This document shows, in pieces, positions 2,525 to 22,763 of a stretch of DNA of 64,000 nt. The stretch is from Escherichia virus ESCO5 (taxonomy: Duplodnaviria; Heunggongvirae; Uroviricota; Caudoviricetes). The notes under the pieces are model-generated. The model saw only the letters and a program-made list of their open reading frames with translations. It made no database searches and was not told where the DNA came from. How positions within the stretch are numbered: position 1 is the first letter of the stretch; every line of letters begins with the position of its first letter. A program made the position numbers and the translations under genes. The stretch lies in IMG/VR virus record IMGVR_UViG_2974610597_000001, one strand, 5' to 3'.

Positions 2525-2545
2525 TTTTAATAGGAGATTAATATA

Positions 2546-3547: not shown

Positions 3548-3567
3548 CAGAACTCTGTTAATATTAG

Positions 3568-3597: not shown

Positions 3598-3631
3598 GTT
3601 TACAACAAGAGTTTACAATGAGGAGATTGAT

Positions 3632-3976: not shown

Positions 3977-3985
3977 GGTGGGCTT

Positions 3986-4534
3986 ATGCTGAATGCGGTA
4001 GAGTTGGCACCACTGATCCGAATTCTTGTTTATAACCCTTCTCAAGAAGTATTGCCAGATGCAATGCTGATTCAGATCATCCAGACTTGGATTGATATTA
4101 TAGGGAATGAAGATAAGGATAAGTGTGCAGTATTGTGGAACAGCTTGATTTCTGTTTTAGAGTATTTATGGAACAACGATGTTCTTAATAACAATACTCA
4201 AACAGGAGGGGCTATGTCTCGCAGAGAAAAGATGGGTGAAGTCGAAGTTGAAGTTAAATTTAACAACGGTCAAGTAACTTATAAGTCTCCGTGGGAAGAT
4301 ATTTATCATAACTATTTAAATGGTCTTATGGTTATTCCTGGGTGCACGGCAGGACGAGGAGCAACCAGTAAAGTTCTTATTGGTGGTGTTGATGCTCGTG
4401 AGATTGATCGAGTAAACAGCGATCCTAACTCTGTAAATGGTCTTGGTAATGTTGCAAGTGTTGATCGTAATACACGCAACGTTAATTATTTGCGAAATTA
4501 TGGACCTGTTTCTTTTTATCGTAGGGACAAATAA
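3986..4534 (+). CDS. putative head-tail connector protein
   Basis: 182-aa ORF in the neck region between capsid and sheath genes; by position only. Confidence 0.4.
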   Translation: MLNAVELAPLIRILVYNPSQEVLPDAMLIQIIQTWIDIIGNEDKDKCAVLWNSLISVLEYLWNNDVLNNNTQTGGAMSRREKMGEVEVEVKFNNGQVTYKSPWEDIYHNYLNGLMVIPGCTAGRGATSKVLIGGVDAREIDRVNSDPNSVNGLGNVASVDRNTRNVNYLRNYGPVSFYRRDK

Positions 4535-5022
4535 TGGAAAGTGAGATCTTACCAGGTGATGATACGGATTGGGAAACCATTATCAAAAAGATGATGGACC
4601 TTGAACAAGTTCAAATCGAAGCTGGTTTTTTAACAAACAAAAGGCATCCTGAATCAGATCTCACTATTCCTGCAATAGCAGCTATTCAACAATATGGTAA
4701 TGAAACAAATAACATACCTGCTCGCCCTTTTATAACAGATGGCGCTGTTATCTCACAGAACAATATCGCTAAAAAGATGAAGCAGGTGTTTGCAAATTAC
4801 TTAATGAATAATGTCGGGTTAGCTGTTTTTGAGCCTATAGCGAGAGCCTCTAGAGAAGGAATAGCTCAAGCGATTGCAATGCAACGTTATCGTCCTTTAT
4901 CTCCTGTGACAATTAAGATACGACAAGATAAAGGCAACTATTCTAATCATATCTTAATAGATACGGCACACATGATAAATGCAATCGAAACAAAAATCAC
5001 AAAAAGCAAGTCTAAAAAATAA
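4534..5022 (+). CDS. putative neck or tail-completion protein
   Basis: 162 aa; start overlaps the upstream stop (ATGA); position between head and tail genes. Confidence 0.4.
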   Translation: MESEILPGDDTDWETIIKKMMDLEQVQIEAGFLTNKRHPESDLTIPAIAAIQQYGNETNNIPARPFITDGAVISQNNIAKKMKQVFANYLMNNVGLAVFEPIARASREGIAQAIAMQRYRPLSPVTIKIRQDKGNYSNHILIDTAHMINAIETKITKSKSKK

Positions 5023-5067
5023 CTTGCATAAACTTTGTTTTTGATGTATACTAAAAAGGAGATACAA

Positions 5068-5484
5068 GTGTTACTAGATCAATTTACTCTCCTTGATCTA
5101 ACTGAATACCAAGGTCGTAGACGAGTCTACAAAGAGGCGGTTGGTTCAGTTATTGCTAACTTAGAAAGTAGTGTAGAATATGAACCATTTACTATTGAAG
5201 CGGCAAGCTTACAACCGATATCTGGTAAAACACTGAATGCACTACCTGAAGGTTACAGATCTAAGGCTCAATATAGTTTCTGGACTAAAACAGAAATGAA
5301 GGGGTTACAACAAGGAACAGAACAGTTATCAGATCAGATATTGATAGATGGTAAATGGTATTCTGTTTATTCCCTTAAAAATTGGACCAGAACATCTTTC
5401 TTAGTCCATCATCACTGTGTTGCAATATTAGACGATCAAAACAACTCCTGGTCTTATGGAACAGAAGGAGGAAACTTTGGCTAA
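5068..5484 (+). CDS. hypothetical neck or tail protein
   Basis: Probable GTG start at 5068 preceded by AAGGAG; the listed ORF begins at 5035. Confidence 0.4.
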   Translation: MLLDQFTLLDLTEYQGRRRVYKEAVGSVIANLESSVEYEPFTIEAASLQPISGKTLNALPEGYRSKAQYSFWTKTEMKGLQQGTEQLSDQILIDGKWYSVYSLKNWTRTSFLVHHHCVAILDDQNNSWSYGTEGGNFG

Positions 5485-6115
5485 TATTTACCAACAAATA
5501 GAAGCATACGAAAATGCCATCTACTTAAATATAGGTGGCTTCCTTCAAGAATTAGTGGGGTTGCCAGTCTATGTTATGGATAAGCCATTCATTAAACCGG
5601 ATACTCCTTACCTAGCACTACGTATTATCACTTCCAGCGATTCTGGAGGTTGGTCTTACCGAAGCTCTATTCAAAATGATATGTATTCCTACGAGATGGA
5701 TAATACCTACGAGATTGAACTTGTAGCCTATCGTGGAAGACCTACCACTTTGATGAGCTATGTTCTGGCTGCTCTCCGTGGTGCAGAGGAATTAAAATAC
5801 AAACATCTCTATTCTAAAGGTCTTGGTTTTTTAGGAGCCTCTAATATAGCTCAAGCCAATACGATTGTAGACGGAGATAAGACTGAATTAAGAGCGCGTA
5901 TGGTTATGACGTTCAACACTCGTATGAGTATTGAAGATATTGCTACTACACCAATAGAAGCAATCAACATGCACATCCGTTCATTCAGAGATAGTTACAA
6001 TGATCCTATCCCTTTAGATTTAATTCTAAACAGGGTTTATGCAATTACTTTGGTTCCAGGCGAATACTCGTCAGTTAATCAAAATGGATCATTATTTAAC
6101 AACCCTACCGAATAA
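5456..6115 (+). CDS. hypothetical tail protein (possible tail terminator or sheath-associated)
   Basis: 219-aa ORF directly upstream of the sheath gene; an alternative TTG start at 5477 follows AAGGAGG. Confidence 0.35.
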   Translation: MEQKEETLANIYQQIEAYENAIYLNIGGFLQELVGLPVYVMDKPFIKPDTPYLALRIITSSDSGGWSYRSSIQNDMYSYEMDNTYEIELVAYRGRPTTLMSYVLAALRGAEELKYKHLYSKGLGFLGASNIAQANTIVDGDKTELRARMVMTFNTRMSIEDIATTPIEAINMHIRSFRDSYNDPIPLDLILNRVYAITLVPGEYSSVNQNGSLFNNPTE

Positions 6116-6149
6116 ACTCATTGGAATTAAGTTTCTAACAGGAGCATAA

Positions 6150-7523
6150 ATGGCAACTTTTCGTGAAAAGGTAGCAACCGTAACTTTACTGTATGGTGCT
6201 ACATCAATTCGTGAAACCCAGTTCGATATTCCTCTGATCCTTACAGGTCAGAACGTAACTGGCGAAGCGATTCAATATTACTCTTCTTCCGATGCACTTT
6301 TGGAAGCAGGTTATGGATTAAATGATCCAGCGTATATTATGGCAGTCAAACTGTTTAACGGTTTGTTCCCACCAGATCAAGTCATGGTTGGTAAGCGTGA
6401 AGTTACAAACTTTACTCTAACTCCAATCGTAGAAGATAGTGCAACTTACACAATTACCATCAAAAATGGTACCAAGAAAAAAGAATTTAAATTCATTGCT
6501 GATGACACTGCAACTGCACAAGAGATTGTAGTTGGTCTGACTGAAATGATCAATGCAGATCTTGTTTATGGCCCACTGTTTACAGTAGCTAACAACGGCG
6601 CTGCAATGACTTTCACTCCAGTAGAAGGTAAGTTTGGTTCTATTGACAGCACAGGTTTCACTCAAGAAACTGTCTATGCTAATGCTATTACGGAAGATAT
6701 TGCTGCTCTGCATGATATTGATAGTAGCTGGTTCTGGACCCTTTCAGATTCCCATGAAACAGAAGATATTCTAGCTTTGGCTGCATGGGTAGAAGAGAAT
6801 GATAAAGTTTACTTCTTCTCTAGTTCTGAACCTGGAATTAAAACGAAAGCAGAAGATAACGTTCTGGAACGACTGAATGACCTCGGTTATAATAACACTT
6901 GCTTTGCATTGTGGATGACCGATGCAGATTCTGTATTCCCAGAAGCAGCAGTTGTTGGTGCTATCTGTTCTCGTCAACCTGGTTTAACTACCCTTCACGG
7001 TAAAACACTGGTAGGCGTAGAGATCGAGAAACTGGATCAGACTTCGGAAAACAATATTGTTCAACAGAACGGTAACATCTATCGTAAAGAGCATGGAACT
7101 CTGTTCTATCGTGATGGATTGATGGTTAGCGGTTTCTTTGTTGACTATGTTGTTCATGCTTTGTGGTTTAAAGCTCGCACAGAAGAATCACTGTTTACAC
7201 TGTTTAAACAACAGTCTATGCTGGGTGGTGGTGTTCGTGCTACTTCAAACGGTCTGGCTTTGATTCGACAAGCTGTTCTGGCTAACCCGATCCAAGTAGG
7301 TATCCTCAACGGTTCCATCGCTAATGAAGTTGTTACTTCTGAAGAGACTGGTTTGCGTGTCGATCTGAAACCTATTGTTTATATTCCTTCTCGTGCCGAT
7401 ATGACCGATGCGCAAATCAATGCTCGTCTGGTTGATGGGATGAAGATTGAATATGTTTACGCTGGCTTCTTCCATTACGTTAAAGTTCAGGTCAACGTCC
7501 TGACTAACCGTACTGCAAACTAA
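6150..7523 (+). CDS. tail sheath protein
   Basis: 457 aa, followed in order by tube, frameshifted chaperone pair and tape measure, the canonical contractile-tail arrangement. Confidence 0.7.
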   Translation: MATFREKVATVTLLYGATSIRETQFDIPLILTGQNVTGEAIQYYSSSDALLEAGYGLNDPAYIMAVKLFNGLFPPDQVMVGKREVTNFTLTPIVEDSATYTITIKNGTKKKEFKFIADDTATAQEIVVGLTEMINADLVYGPLFTVANNGAAMTFTPVEGKFGSIDSTGFTQETVYANAITEDIAALHDIDSSWFWTLSDSHETEDILALAAWVEENDKVYFFSSSEPGIKTKAEDNVLERLNDLGYNNTCFALWMTDADSVFPEAAVVGAICSRQPGLTTLHGKTLVGVEIEKLDQTSENNIVQQNGNIYRKEHGTLFYRDGLMVSGFFVDYVVHALWFKARTEESLFTLFKQQSMLGGGVRATSNGLALIRQAVLANPIQVGILNGSIANEVVTSEETGLRVDLKPIVYIPSRADMTDAQINARLVDGMKIEYVYAGFFHYVKVQVNVLTNRTAN

Positions 7524-7525
7524 TA

Positions 7526-7548
7526 CGGCGGGGGTTAAGCCCCCGTTA
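7526..7548 (+). other. GC-rich hairpin after the sheath gene (possible RNA stabiliser or weak terminator)
   Basis: CGGGGG (7529-7534), loop TTAAG, CCCCCG (7540-7545); no clear U-tract follows. Confidence 0.35.
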
Positions 7549-7569
7549 TCAAAATAAAGAGGATCTATA

Positions 7570-8049
7570 ATGGATAAAATGCTTACTGGCGTAATGGCCT
7601 ACGACCCATCTCAAGTTATCCTTTCATTAGGTGGTTGGGAACCGTGGGGTTTTGCGGCTGATACTAAAATCGTTATTGCTAAATCTAACGATATTATCAA
7701 CCCTTATTCAGGGACTGATGGGGACGTTTCATTAGCTTTGAGTCGTAACCGTTTGGGAACACTCACAATGTCTTTGCAACGCACATCTCCAGCTAACGAA
7801 GTACTTGCAACATATGCACAAACAATGTATTCTACTCGTCAAGTAGCATTCAGTGTTTACTTGGAAGACCCACGTGGCTATTACATTAGCACGATTGGAT
7901 GGATTCAAAGTCAGCCTGAAGATACTATTGGCGAAATGATTACAGAGAACCAATGGGTTATTGGTCTTAAAGATGCAAGCCTTCTGCGTAATGAAGTTGG
8001 TGTAGGTTTGAGCACCCTTAACTCAATCTCTGCTCTGACAATTCAATAA
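7570..8049 (+). CDS. tail tube protein
   Basis: 159 aa immediately downstream of the sheath gene and upstream of the chaperone genes. Confidence 0.65.
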   Translation: MDKMLTGVMAYDPSQVILSLGGWEPWGFAADTKIVIAKSNDIINPYSGTDGDVSLALSRNRLGTLTMSLQRTSPANEVLATYAQTMYSTRQVAFSVYLEDPRGYYISTIGWIQSQPEDTIGEMITENQWVIGLKDASLLRNEVGVGLSTLNSISALTIQ

Positions 8050-8055
8050 TAAATA

Positions 8056-8077
8056 AAGGGCAGAAATGCCCTTTTTA
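8056..8077 (+). terminator. rho-independent terminator
   Basis: AAGGGCA (8056-8062), GAAA loop, TGCCCTT (8067-8073), then TTTTT. Confidence 0.65.
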
Positions 8078-8094
8078 TCATTAGAGAGGAAAAT

Positions 8095-8577
8095 ATGTCA
8101 CAAGAACAAGATAACACAATTCAAAAATATGCTCGACCAGAAGAAGTAGTTGAGATTCCGTTAGATGGAAACAGATCTGTTACTTTCCGTATTATGAAGT
8201 GGAGTCCATCTAAAGTGTTTGACAGGATTCCAGAATTGGGTAGTGTTCTGGTTGTTCCTATGACTATGTATAGCACAGCAACAATGTCCGCAGACGAAGA
8301 CCTTGAGTCACGTATTGCTATGGCACTGATCCAACTTTTTGCAGGTTTGGAAGAAAAGAATTTAACTGTCTTTTTGCGTAAAATTTTAGATGAGGTTTAT
8401 ACTCAAGACGGTTATAACGTTGCAGAAAATTTTGATGAATTATTTATGGCTCACCCAGAACTAGTGTTAGATCTTACTGCTAAAGTTCTGGAGGTAAACT
8501 ACGGCCCTTTTTTCAAACGAGGTTTCGGAAAACTGTTCACACAGCTTCAGGCGATGACGAGTTTAGCAGCAAATTAA
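8095..8577 (+). CDS. tail assembly chaperone (gpG-like)
   Basis: 160 aa between tube and tape measure; overlapped at its 3' end by an open -1 frame. Confidence 0.6.
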   Translation: MSQEQDNTIQKYARPEEVVEIPLDGNRSVTFRIMKWSPSKVFDRIPELGSVLVVPMTMYSTATMSADEDLESRIAMALIQLFAGLEEKNLTVFLRKILDEVYTQDGYNVAENFDELFMAHPELVLDLTAKVLEVNYGPFFKRGFGKLFTQLQAMTSLAAN

Positions 8578-8843
8578 CACCTGCGATTGAACATGCTATC
8601 GACACAGCAACGAAAACCCTTACTTTGAAGTGGTATGAGGTTATTCTTTGCAAAGTCGTTAAAGATACCTCGGAAACACTGAAAACATTGGATAACTACG
8701 GTGTAGATTATCTTTTAAAACTATATGAGTATTTAACATACGAAGAGTATGTTGAAGCCATGTATGTTAAAGACACTTCAATAAAGAGAAAACATCAAAA
8801 CCAGACAAATAAAATGTCAGATTTGTTTAAGAAACTTGTTTAA
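8484..8843 (+). CDS. tail assembly chaperone C-terminal extension (gpGT-like, reached by -1 frameshift)
   Basis: The -1 frame is open from 8484 to the stop at 8841-8843; the listed ORF 8625..8843 is its tail end and starts at TTG with no good RBS. Confidence 0.5.
   Translation, partial: SSGGKLRPFFQTRFRKTVHTASGDDEFSSKLTPAIEHAIDTATKTLTLKWYEVILCKVVKDTSETLKTLDNYGVDYLLKLYEYLTYEEYVEAMYVKDTSIKRKHQNQTNKMSDLFKKLV
8508..8514 (+). promoter_or_regulatory. candidate -1 ribosomal frameshift slippery heptamer T_TTT_TTC
   Basis: X_XXY_YYZ heptamer in the zero frame of the chaperone ORF, inside the 94-nt overlap with the -1 frame. Confidence 0.5.
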
Positions 8844-8863
8844 TCCAACACGAGGAACATACT

Positions 8864-10852
8864 TTGTTAGAAATTAACGCCTCCAAAATTAGTAACGTGG
8901 TTACGTTTAAGGTGGACAAGAACAGTCTCAAGGAAGCAAAAGATGCCGTGTTGAGTGTTCAGAAGTTTGCAAATAAAATGCAACCCACTATGAACATGAC
9001 CAAGTTTAGACAACAAATGAAAGAGATTGAGCGTGAACTTAAGAAAGCTCAAACTCAAAGTCAAAAACCTATGCGAGCACCTACTCCCGCTGGAGCGGGT
9101 GCTCCTGTAGGCGGATCTGGCAGACCTAGAACTCCTAAAACCCCGCAAGGAAGAGAAGAAGAAAAAGCTCGTAAAGCTGCTGAACGCGAAGCTAAAGCAG
9201 CAGCACGTAGGGAAGACTTAGGTAATCTTCGTTTGCAGAACTTTAACTATCGAGCAAGAGCATTTAGTAAAGCCAGTCCTGGCGCTATGCAAGAAGCTAG
9301 AGACGTTATGGGTAAAGCTGTAGAGCAATACAAAAAGGGTGAAATAACTCTTCAACGTATGAACCAAGCTCTTGCTCACCAGTTAGATGCTTTACGCAGA
9401 TCGCATCGTGAAAAGAATGCTGAAATAGAAGACGAGGTTCGTGGTCGCCGTCGTATTCGTAGAGAGCTAGAAGCAGAAGCTAAAACCCGTATACGTATGC
9501 GAAATCGTGAACTTAGAGATATAGAACGCAACCGTAAGCGTGAATTAGCTCAACAAAGACGTGATCGTGATCGTCGATATGGACAATTAAAAGAAGGTGC
9601 GGCAGGTCTTAATCCACGCATGATTGCATCCTCTTTGATCGGTGCTGGGTTATTTGCAGGGGGTTCTGTAGTTGGTAACACTTTGATGAATACTAACGAA
9701 AGGATTAAACTTGTAAGCCGTGGTGCTGAAAACGTTCAGACAAACGCCAACGCTATTTTGGCAATGACAGCTTGGGGTGAACAGAACGGTGTAGACTCTG
9801 CAAATATTATTAAGTCAATAGATAATATTAAAGACGTTCGTGAACGTCTTGGTAATACAGTTTTAGCCTCAAAATGGAATGAGAAAGAAGGGAAGTGGAA
9901 AGGCGGTGATAATGGCATAAATGACATTATGAACTTGTTTGGATGGAATCCAGAACAGCTTAAACCTTTACAGAACGATCCTTTGGCTTTTATTCAGGCT
10001 ACTGTTAATGAAGGTGAGCGTCGAGGTATGAACTCTGCTCAAATCGGGCGACTTCTTGAAAACCTTGGTGATGACCTTATGCACTACCAACGTATGTTTA
10101 GTAAAAACGGCGAAGGGTATAATGAAGTATTGAAAATGCTTCAAAGAACAGGTGCAACATTAACTCAAGAACAAATAGATGCTTCTAAAGAGTTTACTCG
10201 TTTTGCTGCAACAGTTCAGCTTGTAGGTCAAGGTATGCAGAACCATTTCTTAGAGGGTTTTGTGAAAGCCTTACCTAAAGATGATTCTTGGTTGGATAAC
10301 GTTAAAGTGCTAGATCAGTTTGCCAAAGATTTAGGTGAAGAACTTGGTAAGACAACAGTTCAATTAGGAGGTTTTGCTAAAGAATTGGGAGATGGTTTCG
10401 GATCTTTTACCAATTGGCTTAAAGAGACATTCCCAGACACCTTCGGAGACAACACAGATCCTAATAAATCTATGGCACAAAAGGCATATGAGGCAACGCA
10501 AAGTGGAGACAGCAATCCTGTAGCAGATTGGTTGTACAATTTAACAGGTATTGATACACAAGATGTTGGTCGTATGTGGAGAGGAGAACAAACAAGGACA
10601 CGTGCTTTTGGATTTGGTAATCCTCTTGAAGATTTACGTGAATCAGCCTATACACCTAACGTAAGTTTGGCTCGTAATCAACCTATTGTTGAGAATACGG
10701 TAGCAATACCAAGTGATCTTATCAAAGTTACGATCAGCCCTTCTTCAGAGTTTGGAAATATTCTTGATGCAAGAATTCAAAATAGCGGAAATAGCATTTT
10801 CCAACGTTTATCTCTTTCAACTCTAAGTGGACAATCTAACACTGGTGGTTAA
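8864..10852 (+). CDS. tail tape measure protein
   Basis: 662 aa; Arg/Lys/Glu-rich coiled-coil N-terminal half and Gly-rich hydrophobic segment; follows the chaperone pair; TTG start after GAGGA. Confidence 0.8.
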   Translation: MLEINASKISNVVTFKVDKNSLKEAKDAVLSVQKFANKMQPTMNMTKFRQQMKEIERELKKAQTQSQKPMRAPTPAGAGAPVGGSGRPRTPKTPQGREEEKARKAAEREAKAAARREDLGNLRLQNFNYRARAFSKASPGAMQEARDVMGKAVEQYKKGEITLQRMNQALAHQLDALRRSHREKNAEIEDEVRGRRRIRRELEAEAKTRIRMRNRELRDIERNRKRELAQQRRDRDRRYGQLKEGAAGLNPRMIASSLIGAGLFAGGSVVGNTLMNTNERIKLVSRGAENVQTNANAILAMTAWGEQNGVDSANIIKSIDNIKDVRERLGNTVLASKWNEKEGKWKGGDNGINDIMNLFGWNPEQLKPLQNDPLAFIQATVNEGERRGMNSAQIGRLLENLGDDLMHYQRMFSKNGEGYNEVLKMLQRTGATLTQEQIDASKEFTRFAATVQLVGQGMQNHFLEGFVKALPKDDSWLDNVKVLDQFAKDLGEELGKTTVQLGGFAKELGDGFGSFTNWLKETFPDTFGDNTDPNKSMAQKAYEATQSGDSNPVADWLYNLTGIDTQDVGRMWRGEQTRTRAFGFGNPLEDLRESAYTPNVSLARNQPIVENTVAIPSDLIKVTISPSSEFGNILDARIQNSGNSIFQRLSLSTLSGQSNTGG

Positions 10853-10859
10853 TAAAATA

Positions 10860-10881
10860 CCTCGCTTCGGCGGGGTTTTTT
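10860..10881 (+). terminator. rho-independent terminator
   Basis: CCTCGC, TTCG loop, GCGGGG (one G-U pair), then TTTTTT at 10876-10881. Confidence 0.7.
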
Positions 10882-10889
10882 CGTTTCCC

Positions 10890-10919
10890 TTGACACAAAG
10901 TTTCTATATGTGTTACAAT
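10890..10919 (+). promoter_or_regulatory. sigma70-like promoter (TTGACA - 17 bp - TTACAAT)
   Basis: -35 at 10890-10895 and -10 at 10913-10919, immediately after the terminator and upstream of the baseplate genes. Confidence 0.45.
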
Positions 10920-10978
10920 AATCAATATGGGAAGATCTTGCATCTTCCTTTTGGCATTATCATTACTACGAGGTTATC

Positions 10979-11680
10979 ATGGCAGCAATGACTCCACAAC
11001 AGTCGGTGAGAGCCGTCTATAAGGCAGAACAGGAAATCAACTCTACCGAGAATAAAAATACCTCGGCATCTACTGTAAAGGGTGATAATGGTTTCTGCAT
11101 TTTAGCAAGTGTTTATAATAGTTCAAGTGATCAATACATTCAAAACTTTAAAGCAATTACTTTCGATTCGGTCCCTGAAGTAGGTGTAACTCGTGAGGCA
11201 GATGTTACAAGTTTTCCAGTAGAATCAGGATCGGATGTAAGTGACCACGTTCAAATAAAAAACAACAGATTTAAACTTTCAGGTATAATTACCGAAACAC
11301 CAATTCGGCTTATGCGAGATCAATTATACAGTGCAGGTGTAAATGGAGCAAGGATTTCTCAAGCAATAGAATATCTAGATCAAATATTTGAGTCAAGACA
11401 ACCAATAGTTCTTTTGACAGAACACAGGACTTTTGAAAATGTTATTCTGAAAGGCTACTCTTATGATTATAAATCTGAATTTGCTATGCAATTTGATTTA
11501 GAGTTCGAACAAATTCGTCTAGTCTCTAAGGCCACTACTAATGCTATTGCTGTAAAAACAGCACCAAATAAGTCAACTGGTGGTGATGTGAAAGGTCAAG
11601 TCGCTTCTAATGGTCCTAAGTCAGATATTACAGTAAGAACTGCTGAAGCTACTAATACCCCAACAAACAACGGAGGTTAA
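10979..11680 (+). CDS. tail or baseplate-associated structural protein
   Basis: 233-aa ORF, first gene after the tape measure; by position only. Confidence 0.4.
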   Translation: MAAMTPQQSVRAVYKAEQEINSTENKNTSASTVKGDNGFCILASVYNSSSDQYIQNFKAITFDSVPEVGVTREADVTSFPVESGSDVSDHVQIKNNRFKLSGIITETPIRLMRDQLYSAGVNGARISQAIEYLDQIFESRQPIVLLTEHRTFENVILKGYSYDYKSEFAMQFDLEFEQIRLVSKATTNAIAVKTAPNKSTGGDVKGQVASNGPKSDITVRTAEATNTPTNNGG

Positions 11681-11682
11681 TA

Positions 11683-12096
11683 GTGACAACTTATTCTAAA
11701 ACAACAAGGTCTACAAGTAATACTGGCTACAGTGCAGTTTATCTGGAGGACCATTCTACTTATTTTGCATGGTATCTGAAAACTGAAGAGTACCCTGATC
11801 AAACATATACAGTTACATTGGATGGAGTTGATTATGACATTCGTTTAAGGTGGAACACTAGGGACGAGTCTTGGCAATGTCAGATAGGATTATCTGGAGA
11901 TGATCCAAGTATAAGTTTCAAAGTTACAAATGGTTTAGATCTTCTTAAACCTTATAAATATCTTGAAAGTGTGCCAGATGGTCAATTGTATATAGTAGAT
12001 ACAGTTAAGATTAATGGTCGTCCTGGGTATACAACTACAGGTCGAGATAAACGTTTTGTATTGGTTTATATTGATAACAAACCTAATCAGGCGTAA
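11683..12096 (+). CDS. hypothetical baseplate protein
   Basis: 137-aa ORF tightly packed in the baseplate operon. Confidence 0.4.
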   Translation: MTTYSKTTRSTSNTGYSAVYLEDHSTYFAWYLKTEEYPDQTYTVTLDGVDYDIRLRWNTRDESWQCQIGLSGDDPSISFKVTNGLDLLKPYKYLESVPDGQLYIVDTVKINGRPGYTTTGRDKRFVLVYIDNKPNQA

Positions 12097-12105
12097 GGAG
12101 ATAAT

Positions 12106-13116
12106 ATGGCAGAAAGAGAGTATACAAAAGCTCCTGCCCCTAATTTAAACAGGGCATACAAATTATTAATTGGTTCTGCCACAAACACAATACAGAAGAG
12201 AACTAAGAACTCGGCATTTAAATCTACAGTAGATTTGGATACTAAGTTAGGCACAACAGAAAAATCCTCTTCTAATTTGTATTTGTTGCAAGACCATCAA
12301 ATAACCTTCAGCATTAAGAAAGATAATAATAAAGATCCTAACCAAGCAGAGATTGTAGTTTATAATCTATCGGATGATACTGTTAACTATATAAACCGTG
12401 GTATCCGAAATAACTTGGCGGTTGCTCTAGCGGTAGGATACGAAGGTGAAGAGTTGGTTATGATTTTCAAAGGAACTATCCAATGGGTTAGTGATACTTT
12501 TGACTCGGTAGACAGGAAAACCACTTTACACTGTTTGGATGGCGGTATTAACATTGCAGAAGCAAGAACAAGCCGCAGTTATCCAAAAGGAACTAAAATC
12601 AAACGTGTTGTGACAGATTTGGTAAAAGATTTAGGAACTACAGAAGGTAATATACACGTAGACAATGATCAAACCTTATCCTCAGCAACAGCTATGTGTG
12701 GAAACACTTCACATTACCTAGAACATATTTGTAAAAGTATTGATCACAATGTGTCAATACAAGATGGATCTGTTTATGTCACTCCTCGTTCACAAATGTC
12801 TAGTGCACGTAGCGCCTACATTAGCCCTGAAACTGGTCTGATAGGAAGTCCAGAACCATTCCACAACGATATAAAACCTACTAAAAAAGTTACCAAGTCC
12901 TCTAAGAAGGCAAAGAAACCTACAGATGGTGTTAAATTCAAATGCCAAATGAATGGTGCAATACTACCAGAAAAAACAATCTGGTTAAAAAGCCGAGATT
13001 ATGATGGTCCATTTAAAGTTGTTTCTGTTTCTCACAATGGTGATAAAGAGGGTAAAGAGTGGGTTACTGAAGTGGAGTGTGTATCCGTGTCTGAAATAAT
13101 GACTAAGGAGAAATAA
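12106..13116 (+). CDS. putative baseplate hub protein
   Basis: 336 aa directly upstream of the spike gene; RBS AAGGAG. Confidence 0.4.
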   Translation: MAEREYTKAPAPNLNRAYKLLIGSATNTIQKRTKNSAFKSTVDLDTKLGTTEKSSSNLYLLQDHQITFSIKKDNNKDPNQAEIVVYNLSDDTVNYINRGIRNNLAVALAVGYEGEELVMIFKGTIQWVSDTFDSVDRKTTLHCLDGGINIAEARTSRSYPKGTKIKRVVTDLVKDLGTTEGNIHVDNDQTLSSATAMCGNTSHYLEHICKSIDHNVSIQDGSVYVTPRSQMSSARSAYISPETGLIGSPEPFHNDIKPTKKVTKSSKKAKKPTDGVKFKCQMNGAILPEKTIWLKSRDYDGPFKVVSVSHNGDKEGKEWVTEVECVSVSEIMTKEK

Positions 13117-13850
13117 TGGATGCATTGAATTTTGTCACAGCAATGCGTGGCTTAATGACAGAACAATTAGCAGAAGTCCATACAGCCCTGCCAGTCCGTG
13201 TGACTGGCGTTAATTATGGTGCTAAAACTGTCACTTTAGAATCTATTGTTAAAAACACACGATCTAGTGAAGATGAAATAGATTATCCTACTTTTGAAGA
13301 TGTTCCTTTTATGGTTAATGGGGGTGGGACAGGAAGAATCTCATTCCCTATTAAAGCTGGCGATTTAGGAACTGTTATATTTTCTGAAAGAGATCCTTCT
13401 AATGCACTGCAAACTAGTGGAGAAACCTCTTCATCATCCACTTTTATGCAGCCTTGTGGATTATACCCTATTTGTTTTATTCCCAAAATAGCTACAGGAA
13501 CAGATTCAACAGAAGCCGTAGATTCTGAAAAGGTAGTTATTTCTAATAACAAAAACACGTACGCTTCTTTCGACCCTACAGGTAATATTTCAATATGGAA
13601 TAGTCAAGGGATGAAAATAGATATTACTACCTCCGGTATTACTATTACAGATGGCACAGGGACTTTGGATCTAAAAGGTGGTAATTTAACTTTCAAAGGC
13701 GGCGTGGCAGATATCAATGGTCTTAAAATAGATCAGAACGGTTTGATGACAGATGGTAATGGCATCGGATTCCATACTCACACGCACACGGTTCGTAACA
13801 TTCAGAGCGGTAACTCAAGTGCCGAGTCCTTAAAACCAACAGGAGCCTAA
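13116..13850 (+). CDS. baseplate central spike protein (gpV/gp5-like)
   Basis: 244 aa; Gly/Thr-rich repetitive C-terminal half ending in GIGFHTHTHTV, an HxH-type motif like the metal-binding tip of P2 gpV-type spikes. Confidence 0.55.
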   Translation: MDALNFVTAMRGLMTEQLAEVHTALPVRVTGVNYGAKTVTLESIVKNTRSSEDEIDYPTFEDVPFMVNGGGTGRISFPIKAGDLGTVIFSERDPSNALQTSGETSSSSTFMQPCGLYPICFIPKIATGTDSTEAVDSEKVVISNNKNTYASFDPTGNISIWNSQGMKIDITTSGITITDGTGTLDLKGGNLTFKGGVADINGLKIDQNGLMTDGNGIGFHTHTHTVRNIQSGNSSAESLKPTGA

Positions 13851-13851
13851 C

Positions 13852-14478
13852 ATGGGAATCCCTTTTGACTTAAAACTTGGGCCAAACAACGACCTCATCA
13901 TGGATGATGGGGATTTGGTCCTCACTACAACCAGAACAGAAATTGCAGCACAAACTCTTGGGATAACTCTGAACACGTATCGTGGAGAGTGGTTTTTAAA
14001 TACTAACTTCGGTGTTCCTTACTTACAAGAGATTATTGGTGTTGCTAGAAAGAAAGATATTGTAGACAGAATATTTTTAGCAGAGATTGCCAAAAACGTT
14101 TACATAGATACAATAAACAGTTATAAATCTGCTTATGACATGGATCAACGTTATTACTCAATGACAGTTATGGTGACAGTTGGAGCAGATACAGTAACAT
14201 CCATATTCAATACTCAACCTTCTGAAGAGTTTATTTACCCTGAAGCTGGTGAAGACAATGCAGCGATCATTTGTGAAGCTTACAGTATTGTTGAGAATTC
14301 GAATAGACTTTATCGCTTTATCAACTTTGTTGGTTTGCCACGTGATACCTACTCTACTTGGTGGAATGAATGGTCTACAGAGTCAGCAGGGGAAAGAATC
14401 ATGGTTAACGAAAAAGGTGATGCATTAGCTACAAACAATAATTTCGGTATAACAGCTATGACAGGAGTAGAAGAATAA
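13852..14478 (+). CDS. baseplate wedge protein (gpW/gp25-like)
   Basis: N-terminal segment EIAAQTLGITLNTYRGEWFLNTNFGVPYLQEI resembles the gp25/GPW signature; directly follows the spike gene. Confidence 0.5.
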   Translation: MGIPFDLKLGPNNDLIMDDGDLVLTTTRTEIAAQTLGITLNTYRGEWFLNTNFGVPYLQEIIGVARKKDIVDRIFLAEIAKNVYIDTINSYKSAYDMDQRYYSMTVMVTVGADTVTSIFNTQPSEEFIYPEAGEDNAAIICEAYSIVENSNRLYRFINFVGLPRDTYSTWWNEWSTESAGERIMVNEKGDALATNNNFGITAMTGVEE

Positions 14479-14951
14479 TGGCAGATTTAACTACGATCAA
14501 AGTTTCTGATCTTACACAAACAACCTCTGTGTCTGATACAGATTTCTTTGTAACAGATCAGGCTGGAATAACAAAGAAGACTTCTTTGAAAGTGCTGTTG
14601 AGTGGTGCAGGGGTAACTAGAAACCGTTTAAATGCACGGGGAACAGTAACTAGCACCTTGGCATTAGATATTAGTTCAGCAGAATATTTTTCGGCAACCT
14701 TATCTTCTGCAACGTGCACAATTAGTTTTACTAATATTCCAGTAGCAACGAATGCAGTTTTAAACTTTACTTTAGCTTTGCGTCAAGGAAGTGGCGCAAA
14801 TAAAGTCGTATGGCCTTCTTCTGTAAAATGGAGTTTTGGTCGTTCCCCAGTTTTGAGTTATCGTCAAGGTGCAACAGACACTTTTGAGTTTATCAGTTAT
14901 GATAATGGAGCAACTTGGACAGGTAGCTTAGTTTTAGCAGGAGTTATTTAA
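14478..14951 (+). CDS. hypothetical baseplate or tail-fibre-associated protein
   Basis: 157-aa ORF whose start overlaps the upstream stop. Confidence 0.4.
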   Translation: MADLTTIKVSDLTQTTSVSDTDFFVTDQAGITKKTSLKVLLSGAGVTRNRLNARGTVTSTLALDISSAEYFSATLSSATCTISFTNIPVATNAVLNFTLALRQGSGANKVVWPSSVKWSFGRSPVLSYRQGATDTFEFISYDNGATWTGSLVLAGVI

Positions 14952-17827
14952 TGTCAAGAGTTAAGCACAATATTGACAACACGTTTCAGTTGATTGAAGG
15001 GTTGGTTCAGTTTTTGGAAAGAAATACTGGGCTTACCATAGATCCTACGGTTCAGCATTACATTATCAACCCACAAAACGTATTGGCGAACAACAGACAC
15101 TTTATTAACTGGACAGCGCAGGAAGGGCAACCAAACGGTGACGCTACTACCGAAGGTCAATCTGTGCTTATCACTGGTTTTGCTTATGCATATTTGGCTA
15201 CAGGGGATAAAAAATATCTTGAATCTGCCGAGAAGTATTGGCAAGCCTATATAGATCACTTCTTCGGGGGCCAACCTATTCCTGATCCTCCAGCTAAATA
15301 TCGTCCCAACTGGATCATCAATGGTAAAGAACCACGTTTAGCACATTACCCTCTCACAGATGATGGGTATCCTACGCACGGCGGGTTCAAAGGTAGCATG
15401 ATGACTTGGATTAACGGAAGGACTGTTATTCCTAAAGGTGCACCGCATTGGGGGGAATACTTAGATAAAGCTTGGTTTGCTTTCAATGGCAATCTTGGTT
15501 GGAACTCCGTTAACGCAACAGTTTATGCAACTAACCCAGATGGTTCAACTAACTGGAAAGAATATGGAGATCAGTGGGATGTTGAATGGATTATAGATCG
15601 TCTAGGACGTAAAGTTGATTGGGATGGTAACATCTTATCTACAGGTCACAGCTTTGCAGAATATGGAACAGTGCAACTTAAAAATGCTTCTGTGAACGGT
15701 GACTATAAATTCAACTACGCTACATGCAACCCTGTAGAACACGGTGGATATCTGCTTAAGCGTAATGAGATGTGGCATAACCGTCCTGTAAACGTTCCGG
15801 TAGAATTAGGTTATCAAGATAATGCTTCCGATGCGGAAACGTGGTGGTGTGATGCAAACTACTTGATGTATCAGATCACAGGAGAGAGAAAATACTGGCT
15901 TTGCTGGCAATCTTCTTTATTGCTGTGTCAAGACTACTCAAACATTGATATGTTTGATAAATTCTTCCGTAGATCTACGACAGCAATAATTCCTTTTACA
16001 GATGGTATCTCTTATGATTACTCATACCCATCTACAGCAATACCTAAATACTCTCGTGACGAATTAGGATACACAGTAATTCGACAAGATGTTGCAGCCC
16101 AAACAACTCTAGAACAACAGGCAGTTTGGTTCAGAGTGGATCAGAATTCAAAACTGCGTATTGAGTTTCAAGGTGTAGATGATGCAGGGGAAGGTATTCT
16201 TTTCCGTCCAGAGTTAGAATTAAGCAAGACTAAGAGTGAAACAGACACAGTGACATATCGTTGTGGCTTACCTCTTGGTGCAGCTAATATGACTAAGATG
16301 GATATACCTTTATCTAGTTTTATGCGCACCGAACCTCCTGGAGGTGGTGTATATATTATTGCTGAACCTAGAATCATTGTTGACTGGGGAAGCAATACTG
16401 TGATACAATATAAATATGCAACTGGTATTGCTGGGACAAATAGTGATCAGATAGTTTCTGCTAATATGGATTCAGATGGTGGTTTTACTGTTGGGTTTTG
16501 GTTAACACCAACTAAAACAGCCAATTTAAAATCTATTACGTATCGTTCATACGCAGATGATTTTAACATCACTATTACGGATTCCGCAGGTTGGAGATGG
16601 TGGGCCATGTTAGAAAAAACAAATTCTACATGGGTTACTAAAGCTTTAAGTCCTGCTGATTTCAAATTAAGTACTTGGCAACCTAATCACGATGACACAG
16701 AGACAAAACCTTCGTCAATAAACCTGACTGCTATTGATCAGATCAATATTGCATTGGATTCTGAACCTGCAAATGGCTTGACAGGGGCAATCGATTTTTA
16801 TTGCGTTAACGATATCCCATCTTTGTATTCTTCAGCCACTGGTGATGACTACACAATGTATTTCAGGGTTACAGTTTCATCTGAAAATCCTTATACAGCA
16901 AAACTTGGAGATTGTACAATACTGGACTACAAACTTGACAGTTTGAATTATACTCCAGGAATCATTCCATTTTCTAATATTAGCGATCCTAACACAGCAT
17001 TATATGACGGTTGGCGCGGTATTCCTTACCCAGGTTATCAATACCCATCCTTATATTGTTTTAAAGGGAGAGATATTGATTGGGTTCGTATGAACAACAG
17101 TATAGACTTTTTATATGATTCACAAATGTGGTTTTATAATAAGTTTGCCCCTGTGATGCCTGGGCCAATGGCACAAGCTTATGTTTGGGATCGTTGGGAT
17201 GCTCATAAATACGGAAACAAGAATGAGTTCACAATGTATCATTGGAACGATAAAGCTTGGGATGGGTATGAAGCACGAGCATTCTTCTGTGCGTGTCATA
17301 CAGTATACGAACTTAAACAACGAGGAGCAGAAGTTCCTGAAAAACTTTTAACAGTTTGTAAAAACTGGATCAACTATCTGAAGTGGTTCCAAGACAACAA
17401 CGAAGGAAGAACACCAACAATATTTTATCCCAATGGAGAAGTGGCAGCGCCTGTAGATGACTTTACAAGTCACATGTCTGCGCTCTTTATGGCAGGATGT
17501 GCTATAATGGGGATGGCTGGATATGATTCAGAAATTCCTAACATTAAAATAGTAGCAGACCGCTGTTTTGAACTTATTCAGGAAAATTATATTGTTCTTG
17601 GTCCTAATCATGTTATGAATGGCTGTTGGAGTTCCGCTCCTAGACCAGATAGTGATAACGGAGTCTTCTTTGGCTTCCACGCTGGAGAGTTGTTACGTGG
17701 TTTTGGGTTGTATGCTTTATACAAAAAACTTAATCCCCAAAATGCATTACCTGTTTTGGATTCGAGCAATATTCCTGCACTTACTGTTTTGACAATGGCA
17801 AACATTAGTGTGGACGTTACCGAGTAA
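14951..17827 (+). CDS. large tail fibre or tailspike protein 1
   Basis: 958 aa, Trp/Tyr-rich; first of a run of large receptor-binding-type proteins. Confidence 0.5.
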   Translation: MSRVKHNIDNTFQLIEGLVQFLERNTGLTIDPTVQHYIINPQNVLANNRHFINWTAQEGQPNGDATTEGQSVLITGFAYAYLATGDKKYLESAEKYWQAYIDHFFGGQPIPDPPAKYRPNWIINGKEPRLAHYPLTDDGYPTHGGFKGSMMTWINGRTVIPKGAPHWGEYLDKAWFAFNGNLGWNSVNATVYATNPDGSTNWKEYGDQWDVEWIIDRLGRKVDWDGNILSTGHSFAEYGTVQLKNASVNGDYKFNYATCNPVEHGGYLLKRNEMWHNRPVNVPVELGYQDNASDAETWWCDANYLMYQITGERKYWLCWQSSLLLCQDYSNIDMFDKFFRRSTTAIIPFTDGISYDYSYPSTAIPKYSRDELGYTVIRQDVAAQTTLEQQAVWFRVDQNSKLRIEFQGVDDAGEGILFRPELELSKTKSETDTVTYRCGLPLGAANMTKMDIPLSSFMRTEPPGGGVYIIAEPRIIVDWGSNTVIQYKYATGIAGTNSDQIVSANMDSDGGFTVGFWLTPTKTANLKSITYRSYADDFNITITDSAGWRWWAMLEKTNSTWVTKALSPADFKLSTWQPNHDDTETKPSSINLTAIDQINIALDSEPANGLTGAIDFYCVNDIPSLYSSATGDDYTMYFRVTVSSENPYTAKLGDCTILDYKLDSLNYTPGIIPFSNISDPNTALYDGWRGIPYPGYQYPSLYCFKGRDIDWVRMNNSIDFLYDSQMWFYNKFAPVMPGPMAQAYVWDRWDAHKYGNKNEFTMYHWNDKAWDGYEARAFFCACHTVYELKQRGAEVPEKLLTVCKNWINYLKWFQDNNEGRTPTIFYPNGEVAAPVDDFTSHMSALFMAGCAIMGMAGYDSEIPNIKIVADRCFELIQENYIVLGPNHVMNGCWSSAPRPDSDNGVFFGFHAGELLRGFGLYALYKKLNPQNALPVLDSSNIPALTVLTMANISVDVTE

Positions 17828-17835
17828 GGGGTAAA

Positions 17836-19989
17836 ATGAAACAAGCTATATTTACTGTCACGCGAGACAAGAGAGTAAATGCGAGTTCATTTAACTACAC
17901 GACTGTTGATGGAACAGCAGTCGCTGGTAGAGATTATATTGCAAAATCGGGAACACTTGTGTTCCCTGATGATGCTGATTCTGCTACCATTGTGGTTGAA
18001 GTATTTGAACGACCAAAGAACTCAATAGATCTTAACTTCTCCCTCCAAGTTTCAGGGATTAGTCAAAATAACATGATGGTTGAAACGACCATCAACTGTA
18101 TTATAACTACGATTCAAGAAAATACTACTCCAATAACTTGGACTACAAAAGACGTTAAAATGTTCTCTCCTATGTATTGGACAATAGATTCTCAAGCAAC
18201 GGAAAGTTGTTCTATTGTATCTCATGGAGACTCTTTTACTGCAAGATTTGTAAACAGAACAACAGCAGGTTTGGCAGGGGTTATCTGGAGCACAGTTGAC
18301 AAATATGACCATAAAGGTGTTGGGTATTTACCCCACACAGATTTAAGTTCAGAGAAACTTTGGTTTAAAATGGAAGTTAGTCAAAACATGCCAGGTTTTA
18401 AAGAAGAACCTTTGGTGCCAACTTTGACTGTAACTCTCTTGGATAAAAGTGTCCACTATGTTAGTTTAGGATTTTATGCTTCAGATATTTCAGAAGATGG
18501 TAAAACAGCTACAATCAAACTAGATTTTGGTAATATCTTCTCTGGTCCTAATAATGATATTCCTTTGGACATGAGTGCTGTAGATAATATTTTCTTCTCT
18601 TTGATTACAGCAAGGTATGAAGAAATAGAAGAGATTGTACCTATTGATAGTCAAGAGGCTTGGTTTACTTTCACTCTTCTTGAACCTACTTCTGGTTATA
18701 GTATGATGAAAGTCAGTAACCTTGTCCAGCCTGAACATGATATTCGCATGTGCACATCTTATGACGATATGTATAACCTGACTCCAGAGAGAGTTATTTA
18801 TAATACATATGCGCTAGGTTATCGTGGAATGATTAACCATTACAACGGAATGTCTCACTATTATGAGTTCTCATGGAACGGAACATCTTGGGCTTTAAAT
18901 AGATCTGTCTTCCTGAATCCAGCTACAGAAGCTTGGCTAAATAGTTTCCATTCTATAGCGAACGAGAAGGGTTACACAATAATGAACTCTTTAAGTTTTG
19001 AGTTGATGAGCACAGTTTGTCCTGTAGAATGGGTCCAGCATGATTGGAACGATGCTCTTGCAGCAACAGGGTATGAGCCTCCTAGTTACGTGTTGTCTCC
19101 AACTATTGACGAAGGTATGAAATATTTGCAAAATGTTATTAATAAAATAGCATCTATTTCGCAAGCTAATAATATTCCAGTTGTCATTCAAATTGGTGAG
19201 CCTTGGTGGTGGTATAATACAGCGAGTAAAATGCCTTGTATATACGATTACACTACTAAACTAGCATTCAACACAGAAACAGGTTTATTTGCACAAGATG
19301 TAGGAACAATAGATAATTATAAAACAGGAACACCGTTTGACGAATACTATGCATTTTTGTCTCGTAAACTAGGATTAAGAGTTGCAAAGTTTGCAACAGA
19401 TACTAGATTAGCCTATCCTGGAGCTAAAGTTACATTATTACCATTTGTGCCATCCATTTTAGGTAACGGTATGATGGAGTTTGTTAACTTCCCTAAAGAT
19501 TATTATATCCCAGAAAACTTCGACTTTTATTGTTCAGAGTGTTATGACTGGTTGTTGGAAGGTAAGATGGAAAAATCTTTTGACGCTATCACAATACCTA
19601 ATGAACAATTAGGTTTTAGTTATGATAAGATACATTATCTTGCAGGTTTTGTTCCAGATGCTACTCTTGCACCTTTGTATAGCTTTGATCCTGAATCAAA
19701 CTACCGCACGTATCTTTGGAAAATGATTATAGGTAACATAGTGTTGAACGCCAATAAGTTCAATGGACTTACACAATATATATGGGCCTATCCTCAAATA
19801 ATGCACGATTCTATCACGGTAGTTAATTCTCAATCCCAAGTTTTCTATATGGGTAACGTGCCTTTGAACGTTTATTTACAGGATATCACTCTTAAACAGG
19901 TAAATGTTGAGATTGCCACCATAAGTGGAATTACATTAGCCACTAAATCTGGAGAAGATTTAGTAACAACACAAAAATTTTATATATAG
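17836..19989 (+). CDS. tail fibre or tailspike protein 2 with N-terminal Calx-beta-like domain
   Basis: 717 aa; N-terminus (NYTTVDGTAVAGRDYIAKSGTLVFPDDADSATIVVEVFE) matches the Calx-beta pattern. Confidence 0.5.
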   Translation: MKQAIFTVTRDKRVNASSFNYTTVDGTAVAGRDYIAKSGTLVFPDDADSATIVVEVFERPKNSIDLNFSLQVSGISQNNMMVETTINCIITTIQENTTPITWTTKDVKMFSPMYWTIDSQATESCSIVSHGDSFTARFVNRTTAGLAGVIWSTVDKYDHKGVGYLPHTDLSSEKLWFKMEVSQNMPGFKEEPLVPTLTVTLLDKSVHYVSLGFYASDISEDGKTATIKLDFGNIFSGPNNDIPLDMSAVDNIFFSLITARYEEIEEIVPIDSQEAWFTFTLLEPTSGYSMMKVSNLVQPEHDIRMCTSYDDMYNLTPERVIYNTYALGYRGMINHYNGMSHYYEFSWNGTSWALNRSVFLNPATEAWLNSFHSIANEKGYTIMNSLSFELMSTVCPVEWVQHDWNDALAATGYEPPSYVLSPTIDEGMKYLQNVINKIASISQANNIPVVIQIGEPWWWYNTASKMPCIYDYTTKLAFNTETGLFAQDVGTIDNYKTGTPFDEYYAFLSRKLGLRVAKFATDTRLAYPGAKVTLLPFVPSILGNGMMEFVNFPKDYYIPENFDFYCSECYDWLLEGKMEKSFDAITIPNEQLGFSYDKIHYLAGFVPDATLAPLYSFDPESNYRTYLWKMIIGNIVLNANKFNGLTQYIWAYPQIMHDSITVVNSQSQVFYMGNVPLNVYLQDITLKQVNVEIATISGITLATKSGEDLVTTQKFYI

Positions 19990-19997
19990 GAGTAAAA

Positions 19998-22763
19998 ATG
20001 TCAACTACAATTACTAATTTACCCGAAACATCAAAAGTTAATGGTTCTGATTACCTGGTTTTAGACCAACCTGATAAGACTGTTAAAAGCACAGTTTCCA
20101 ACTTTCTTACTGACACTGGGGTGGTTTTAGCCACCCAGTTAAAAGATATTTCTGGAGCTACCAAGTACCCAGAACTTCAAATGTCACGCTGGAGAGATGA
20201 AGGTGATCCTAGAGGATGGGGAGCAGTAGGTGACGGAGCAACAGACGATACCAATGCCATAACACAGCTTCTTGCTGCTATGCCTGATGGATGGATTATT
20301 GATGGGCGTAATCTCACTTTCAAGGTTACAACACTACCAGATATAAGCAAGTTTAAAAACGCTGCTTTTGTTTACGAGCGTATTGTTGGACAACCCCTTA
20401 CTTATGTATCTGAAGGTTTCTTCGATGGAAATCTGACAAAGATTACGGATACACCATTTTACAATGCTTGGACGCAAGATAAGACGTTTGTTTATGACAA
20501 TGTTATATATGCACCATTTATGGCTGGCGAACGTCATGGTGTACAAAACCTCCATGTAGCGTGGGTTAAATCAGGAGATGATGGACAAACTTGGTCTATG
20601 CCAGAATGGTTAACTCCAATTCATCCTGATTATAATGCCTCTTCAGCAAACAAAGTTAACTATCATTGTATGAGTATGGGCGTATGTGGTAATCGCCTAT
20701 ATGCAGTCATCGAAACCCGTTATTTATCTAACATGCGATTGAAGAAAGCAGAACTTTGGTCACGTCCAATGCCTTATTATAGAAGGCCAACTGGAGGTAT
20801 AACAATTAGTTCTGGGTCTACTACGGCGACGATTGTTTTAGAAAAGCATGGTCTTAAAGTTGGAGATGCTGTTAACTTTTCCAATTCAGGTGCAACTGGT
20901 GTATCTGGAAATATGACTGTTGCATCTGTAATTAACAAGGATACATTTACTGTTACATTAGCGAGTGCTGCCACATCTAATATAGATAATACAGGAACTA
21001 CTTGGCATTTTGGAACACGTTTCTGGGATAGCCCTTGGGAAATTACAGAATTACCAGATGTTGCCTATTCTACTAATGCAGACTTATGTGTTACAGAAAC
21101 CCATAGTTTTACAGTTATAGATGATGATAATTACACTTTTGCTGTGGGTTATCACAATGGTGATGTTTCCCCAAGAAGATTAGGTATTTTGTATTTCAAT
21201 AATGCTTACTCTGACCCAAGTTCTTTTACTCGTAGAACAATTAGTCAAGAATATGCTGACAATGCAGCAGAACCCTGCATTAAATATTATGATGGAATTT
21301 TATATTTAACTACTAGGGGTACTTCAACTTCTGCTGCTGGTTCTACATTAGCAATGAGTGCTGACCTTGGAGAAAACTGGAATTACTTAAGATTTCCTAA
21401 CAACGTTCATCATACAAACCTACCATTTGCAAAAGTTGGTAACTACCTTTATATCTTTGGTACAGAACGTTCATTTGGAGAATGGGAAGGAGAAGAACTA
21501 GATAATAGATATAAAGGTACGTATCCTCGAACGTTTATGTGCAAGATTAATGTATCTGCATGGCCTGCATCTTTATCCGATGTTCAATGGTTTAATATCA
21601 CCGATCAGATGTATCAAGGGCATATTGTTAATTCTGCATGTGGTGTTGGTTCGGTATGTGTTAAAGATGGTTGGTTATATTATATCTTTGGAGGCGAAGA
21701 TTTCTTATCTCCTTGGTCTATTGGGGATAATAGTAAAAAATTATGGTACAAGCACGATGGTCATCCAGCCGATTTATATAGCTATAGACTAAAGATTACC
21801 GAACATGATTTTGTATCACGTGATTTCAAATATGGAGCTACGCCAAACCGTACATTGCCTGTATCTATGGGTACAGATGGGGTAAGGCATGTCTCAGCCC
21901 CTGTAACTTTTGATAATGATGTGCAAGTACACTCTTTAACAGTTACTGGTCTTGAGCATGATGGGACACAACAATCTGCCGTTAGAATAAAATTAGATGG
22001 TGATTATGGGGTTGTTGCAAAAAATGTCCCAATAAAAAATCCTTCTGAACAGCGACTAATCTTATGTGGAGGAGAAACTCCTTACGTTACTGATGGATCG
22101 CTATTACAACTATATGGTTCAAACCATACGTATCCAAACAGAGCAGTTTTATATGCCCCAGGAGGAGCATATACCCAAAATAATTTCATGCCATATTTAG
22201 ATGGACAAGTTGCATTAGGTGGTGCATCTAACAGATGGTCAGAAGTGTACGCATCTACAGGAACCATTAATACTTCAGATGGAACATTAAAAACTAAACC
22301 TACAGAGATTGAAGATATTTTACTGAAAGCGTGGGAAGATATTCATGTAATCTCTTATCAATGGCTGAGTGCTATCGCGGAGAAAGGAGATTCTGCGCGT
22401 ATTCATTTTGGTGTTATAGCTCAAGATGTAAGAGATATTCTGATTAATTATGGTTTAATGGATGAAAATAGCACTGATTGTAAGTATGCTTTTCTGTGTT
22501 ATGATGAATACCCTGCTATGTACGATAGTGTTGTTACGGGACAAAAAGAAATCCCTTTATTTGATGATGAAGGGAATGTTGTAATTGATGAAGAAGGTAA
22601 TCCAGTAACAATCGTAGAAGATGTTGTAGAAACTATCGAAATAATTCCAGCAGGATCGCGATGGGGTATCCGCGCTGACCAAATGTTTTTTATTGAGATG
22701 GCTTATCAACGTAAAAAGTTAAAAGCTCTTGAAGAAAGACTTGCAACCCTGGAAAGTAAATAA
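19998..22763 (+). CDS. tailspike with Asp-box motifs and C-terminal S74-type intramolecular chaperone domain (sialidase-like)
   Basis: 921 aa; GDGATDDT motif near the N-terminus, Asp-boxes SGDDGQTW and SADLGENW, and a C-terminal TSDGTLKTKPTEIEDI...GVIAQDV segment typical of autoproteolytic chaperone domains. Confidence 0.6.
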   Translation: MSTTITNLPETSKVNGSDYLVLDQPDKTVKSTVSNFLTDTGVVLATQLKDISGATKYPELQMSRWRDEGDPRGWGAVGDGATDDTNAITQLLAAMPDGWIIDGRNLTFKVTTLPDISKFKNAAFVYERIVGQPLTYVSEGFFDGNLTKITDTPFYNAWTQDKTFVYDNVIYAPFMAGERHGVQNLHVAWVKSGDDGQTWSMPEWLTPIHPDYNASSANKVNYHCMSMGVCGNRLYAVIETRYLSNMRLKKAELWSRPMPYYRRPTGGITISSGSTTATIVLEKHGLKVGDAVNFSNSGATGVSGNMTVASVINKDTFTVTLASAATSNIDNTGTTWHFGTRFWDSPWEITELPDVAYSTNADLCVTETHSFTVIDDDNYTFAVGYHNGDVSPRRLGILYFNNAYSDPSSFTRRTISQEYADNAAEPCIKYYDGILYLTTRGTSTSAAGSTLAMSADLGENWNYLRFPNNVHHTNLPFAKVGNYLYIFGTERSFGEWEGEELDNRYKGTYPRTFMCKINVSAWPASLSDVQWFNITDQMYQGHIVNSACGVGSVCVKDGWLYYIFGGEDFLSPWSIGDNSKKLWYKHDGHPADLYSYRLKITEHDFVSRDFKYGATPNRTLPVSMGTDGVRHVSAPVTFDNDVQVHSLTVTGLEHDGTQQSAVRIKLDGDYGVVAKNVPIKNPSEQRLILCGGETPYVTDGSLLQLYGSNHTYPNRAVLYAPGGAYTQNNFMPYLDGQVALGGASNRWSEVYASTGTINTSDGTLKTKPTEIEDILLKAWEDIHVISYQWLSAIAEKGDSARIHFGVIAQDVRDILINYGLMDENSTDCKYAFLCYDEYPAMYDSVVTGQKEIPLFDDEGNVVIDEEGNPVTIVEDVVETIEIIPAGSRWGIRADQMFFIEMAYQRKKLKALEERLATLESK

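Follow-up and report, generated by a model that had tools for sequence, protein, structure and literature searches.

A phi92-type baseplate central spike in a Phapecoctavirus, with a predicted double-histidine iron site at its apex

The window, a stretch of 64,000 nucleotides of DNA from Escherichia virus ESCO5 (IMG/VR record IMGVR_UViG_2974610597_000001), contains a baseplate core encoded on the plus strand in the order Dit-like protein, plug, hub, spike and wedge-like protein. The Dit-like tail protein (10979..11680, +) was recognized by Pfam PF21821 (E = 9e-27), and the baseplate plug protein, which is Pam3 gp18-like (11683..12096, +), by PF22479 (E = 3.7e-21). The baseplate hub (12106..13116, +) matched both PF22759, named after the E217 gp41 hub (E = 1.5e-9), and PHROG 196 (E = 1.5e-80), and the ESCO5 annotation of the gene preceding the spike is also 'baseplate hub'. 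Downstream of the spike gene (13116..13850, +) lies a baseplate wedge-like gene (13852..14478, +), which found no match in a Pfam search and was placed by PHROG 120, a wedge subunit (E = 6e-20), and PHROG 4233 (E = 2.4e-79). The spike region is a tightly packed structural operon: the hub stop and the spike start share one base (TAATG), the sequence AGGAG is present at 13106..13110 upstream of the spike ATG, and the spike stop codon and the start of the next gene are 2 nt apart.

The order of genes in the window is consistent with that reported for phage phi92, where gp135 starts tail tube assembly, gp137 is the hub and gp139 is the sheath initiator (PMC13450770). Judged by position, the Dit-like protein may be the tube initiator, as it is encoded two genes before the hub like gp135 relative to gp137, and the wedge-like gene appears to occupy the position of gp139.

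The spike ORF was found exactly as the initial annotation had placed it, with an ATG start and a product of 244 amino acids. Its translation includes ...GNGIGFHTHTHTVRNIQSGNSSAESLKPTGA, in which the run H-T-H-T-H-T forms residues 220 to 225 (13773..13790, +; DNA CATACTCACACGCACACG). The protein had been said to end in GIGFHTHTHTV; the motif does lie near the C-terminus, but 19 residues follow it. Only four of the 244 residues are histidines, three of them within one stretch of five residues, and an HxHxH run was obtained in 88 of 200,000 permutations of the spike residues (p ~4e-4). The DNA of the motif is visibly CA-rich, and it could be argued that the run is a functionless product of chance, low-complexity (CA)n-like DNA read in frame. 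We rejected this explanation, which the conservation data refute and which now has practically no probability left: in protein sequence the motif persists even in homologues of only 44% identity, the permutation value speaks against it, and the equivalent residues are reported as iron-binding in solved structures. Conservation among homologues is more telling here than the shuffling p-value.

In a search of PDB sequences the protein matched the central spike of phi92, both the full-length structure 3PQI and 21vq from the cryo-EM baseplate, at E = 5e-117, with residues 1-243 aligned to residues 1-244; a C-terminal fragment of the phi92 protein (3PQH) was matched at E = 5.6e-45. The phi92 spike has 245 amino acids, and the alignment contains 177 identical residues in 244 columns (72.5%) with a single gap of one residue. 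Identity falls from 82% in the N-terminal part (residues 1-120) through 67% in the beta-helix to 53% in the apex (residues 206-243). The alignment of the apex is gapless and keeps the core G-I-G-x-H-T-H-T-H-x-V-R; the tip segment, residues 217-244 (13764..13847, +), contains the histidine run. Differences at the apex include HTHTHP in phi92 for HTHTHT here, and L for F219.

The domain content of the two proteins is also the same. The N-terminal OB-fold domain PF18352 (E = 8e-11; 42.3 bits against a gathering cutoff of 26.1) covers residues 25-106 (13188..13433, +). Residues 140-216 (13533..13763, +) match PF21930, a beta-helical trimerization domain, over the full model from 1 to 75 (E = 8.5e-32; 109.4 bits, cutoff 27). 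A Pfam search of the spike at E <= 0.1 returned nothing besides these two. In the PHROGs search at E <= 0.01 the neighbours were all placed and the spike was left without a family, an absence that lies with the library and takes nothing from the assignment.

We also built an AF2 monomer model of the spike from an alignment of 43 sequences and used it for fold matching only. The mean pLDDT was 77. The beta-helix region, predicted as a run of short beta strands, reached 87-94, and the apex, at 58-72, had the lowest confidence in the C-terminal part of the model. The top PDB match found by Foldseek was again 3PQI (E = 2.6e-22), and further matches were to the central spikes of PhiTE, the Pseudomonas phages SN (gp41), E217 (gp43) and Pa193, R2 pyocin, P2 (gpV) and Mu and to VgrG. 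The features of the phi92 type, namely PF18352, PF21930, collinearity with a solved spike over the full length, an invariant HxH motif and a position adjacent to the hub, were thus all found in this protein. The earlier identification as a central spike is borne out by the full-length orthologue and its two domains. With a probability of roughly 0.94, the product of ORF 13116..13850 is a Phapecoctavirus baseplate central spike of the phi92 type, an iron-caged trimeric needle as in phi92 and P2. Within this reading the iron site is a transfer by homology, from which we infer the trimer and the occupancy of the site.

The feature is already known, in that the spike is annotated in public records and an iron tip has been described in phi92. 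Positions 1-25000 of the window correspond to ESCO5 63035-88034 with 100% identity, and are also 100% identical in vB_EcoM_REC. The DNA of the spike gene itself shows 100% identity in these two phages and 95-99.7% in 62 others among the matches listed. Because of its complete identity to ESCO5 HOR27_gp240, the gene is to be regarded as publicly annotated: the ESCO5 and vB_EcoM_REC records carry the same gene under the names 'baseplate spike' or 'baseplate central spike', and they name the protein with no mention of a metal site. ESCO5, a Phapecoctavirus, and phi92 are both members of the Stephanstirmvirinae and belong to different genera; matches to the window at 60-80% DNA identity include Justusliebigvirus records. 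The phi92 spike (Browning et al., Structure 2012, as cited in PMC13450770) is said to be one of the two proteins in which an iron-loaded tip was first described. Since the same idea is found in the solved phi92 orthologue, the initial annotation was right in proposing it, and the proposal is not new. The useful gain lies in an exact annotation and in a sharper reading of the motif, with H222 and H224 as the probable cage and H220 as a variable neighbour; as a discovery it has little weight.

The phi92 spike consists of an OB-fold, a beta-helix and an apex, and in the apex a ferric ion is coordinated via three HxH motifs, the cryo-EM data being consistent with an earlier crystal structure (PMC13450770). 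In P2 gpV, a buried Fe ion is enclosed in an octahedral cage to which each of the three chains contributes H197 and H199; HxH has been termed the one feature that all such spikes conserve, and the phi92 spike is among the examples aligned (bioRxiv 10.1101/2023.02.25.529910). P2 gpV (3QR7/3QR8) and the R2 pyocin spike PA0616 (4S37) resemble the present protein in having an OB-fold, a triple beta-helix and an apex with an HxH iron cage, the last of these predicted here, and gpV likewise bears an H-x-H-x-H run (H195, H197, H199). The likeness was detected at the level of the fold, where the AF2 model matched 4S37 with E about 2e-6 and 3QR8 with E = 1.2e-3 by Foldseek.

The two spikes are not related in the same way by sequence. 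When the family profile of the spike was compared with gpV by hhalign, the probability was 29.5% over 45 C-terminal columns only, with no significant homology outside the apex, and no gpV-type Pfam family was matched in the spike. The C-terminal 45 residues of the query did not match PF18946, the 'GpV Apex motif', even at E <= 10. Among distant members of the family, one (P0041, 27.2 bits) scored above the PF18946 cutoff of 20.8 bits and two (P0028, 20.5 bits; P0042, 19.2 bits) scored just below it. We did not assign the spike to PF18946, as the query is unmatched and distant relatives alone touch the model, and we rejected 'P2 gpV-type' as a label for the sequence family on the basis of the hhalign result, confined as it is to C-terminal columns. 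The spike is kin to P2 gpV, the R2 pyocin spike and VgrG/PAAR by fold, architecture and function. The description of the tip as P2 gpV-type is therefore to be divided: the idea of a His-x-His metal site gains support through phi92 orthology, whereas by sequence the family is the phi92 type.

Which of the three histidines matter was read from a family alignment of 42 homologues with 44-98% identity, which together with the query made 43 sequences. H222 and H224 are invariant in all 43 members, and T223 between them is kept in 40, so that the HxH motif proper is H222-T223-H224 (13779..13787, +). Residue 220, on the other hand, is H in only 24 members, the rest having N (10), D (8) or A (1), and T225 varies across the family (T, P, L, G, K and others). 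The gpV protein translated from NC_001895 reads ...KVL-H195-T-H197-K-H199-PGD, and a weak profile alignment put its HTHKH in register with HTHTH, by which H222 and H224 align with H197 and H199. Because of this conservation and the P2 numbering, H222 and H224 are the likely ligands, which would supply a six-histidine iron cage in the trimer. Since only these two are invariant and the cage of P2 is built from the last two histidines of its run, the triple run appears to be an ordinary HxH cage next to a variable polar neighbour, H220, rather than a special or extended metal site. The metal-loaded tip that had been deduced from a triple His-Thr run thus retains support as a probable HxH site, and the additional first histidine adds nothing to it, H220 being replaced in 19 of the 43 sequences.

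An alternative is that all three histidines are functional and form an extended or second metal site, or an element sensing pH or metal, which would make the tip unlike a plain HxH cage. The first histidine is indeed present in this spike, in phi92 (HTHTH), in P2 gpV (HTHKH) and in more than half of the family (24/43), and His at position 220 is commoner than an unconstrained position would retain. Yet H220 gives way to N (10), D (8) or A (1) among the 43 relatives, while H222 and H224 are never altered, and the exchange of H, N and D resembles a polar second-shell or surface position and not a ligand. Moreover, the cage described for P2 consists of H197 and H199 only (bioRxiv 10.1101/2023.02.25.529910), and the phi92 cryo-EM paper speaks of 'double-histidine' HxH motifs (PMC13450770). 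We consider a three-histidine site very improbable on these grounds. Equally slim are the odds that H220 has a role of its own outside the cage, for example by tuning the Fe site through a hydrogen bond from the second shell, or by acting as a switch that responds to pH or metal and loosens the apex once penetration has occurred. The clade of Phapecoctavirus and phi92 retains H220, as P2 gpV does independently, and more distant relatives have N or D; if such a role were true, H-x-H-x-H tips would make up a functional subclass of iron-loaded spikes.

With H222 and H224 as the preferred cage residues, the following architecture can be proposed. Three spike chains would form a needle, docked by its N-terminal OB-fold domains to the trimeric hub where the tail tube ends. 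In their middle regions the three chains would intertwine into a triple beta-helix, and the last ~30 residues would make a conical apex. There, H222 and H224 from the three chains would surround a single iron ion, buried on the three-fold axis, with six imidazoles, as in phi92 and P2, with H220 standing outside the conserved cage. The iron cage may rigidify the narrow tip, which contraction of the sheath would drive through the outer membrane of the host. Trimerization, iron occupancy and the mechanical role are expected here by analogy with the solved spikes.

The cage is a well established structural feature of such spikes; its need for piercing is not. In P2, replacement of the cage histidines by Ala unfolded the apex and lowered plating efficiency only about two-fold, replacement by Phe or deletion of the apex gave infection like the wild type, and the authors concluded that the spike's diameter matters and not the kind of apex it bears (bioRxiv 10.1101/2023.02.25.529910). 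The P2 apex and its histidine cage are thus dispensable under laboratory conditions, and it is in doubt whether a cage would be necessary for piercing here. These mutants favour an alternative in which the histidine cage is a clamp for folding and stability that holds the chains in register and is not needed for piercing, so that 'metal-loaded tip' would describe a structure and not a mechanism; an in-register clamp has already been proposed for the HxH motifs of tail fibres. Against it, the conservation of both histidines among unrelated spikes is as strong as that seen in enzymes and speaks for selection under natural conditions, missed by plating in the laboratory, and the mutant results come from P2, not from spikes of the phi92 type. 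We hold the clamp to be a serious alternative, though somewhat less probable than its opposite. Strict conservation of HxH versus its laboratory dispensability in P2 raises a puzzle for such spikes.

Phapecoctaviruses and phi92 infect encapsulated E. coli. With an endosialidase tailspike also encoded in the window, they are reasonable systems in which to study the role of a rigid metal tip on natural capsulated hosts. That tailspike (19998..22763, +; 921 aa) has a full set of Pfam domains, End_N_terminal, End_beta_propel (E = 1e-212), End_beta_barrel and End_tail_spike, and also bears the Peptidase_S74 intramolecular chaperone; its domains indicate that the phage probably degrades a polysialic acid (K1-type) capsule.

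A metal-stabilized, sharpened tip on a trimeric beta-helical spike is also found in T4 (gp5 with gp5.4) and in type VI secretion systems (T6SS; VgrG with PAAR). There a PAAR protein distinct from the spike provides the tip; here the spike chain forms it with its own C-terminus. VgrG structures were weak fold matches of the AF2 model in the Foldseek search, and PAAR may be homologous to the apex according to the P2 study (bioRxiv 10.1101/2023.02.25.529910). A Pfam scan of 11 neighbouring gene products revealed no PAAR domain.

Several further observations were made in the window. The protein of 717 aa encoded at 17836..19989 (+) combines a Calx-beta domain with N-terminal and TIM-barrel domains of a 'non-contractile tail sheath protein' (PF23844, PF23845), and is encoded in the fibre module of a contractile-tailed phage. 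In the same fibre region, neither the 958-aa 'tail protein' at 14951..17827 (+) nor the 353-aa ORF at 25204..26265 (+), which has an HNH triplet at residue 111, had a Pfam match at E <= 0.01. The 187-aa protein encoded at 46948..47511 (-), with nine histidines in total and no Pfam family at E <= 0.01, carries a second H-x-H-x-H run, HCHDH, near its C-terminus (residues 179-183). ARAGORN reported no tRNA or tmRNA genes in the window (1..64000).

Finally, a slippery-type heptamer, T_TTT_TTC, lies at 8508-8514 in the zero frame of the ORF for the tail assembly chaperone (8095..8577, +). The -1 frame is open over 8484-8843 and stops just before the tape measure gene, which begins with TTG at 8864. 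The arrangement points to a probable programmed -1 frameshift of the classical type, by which a longer form of the chaperone would be made. The ESCO5 RefSeq annotation gives the short chaperone ORF only, and leaves the gap of ~290 nt before the tape measure gene empty.
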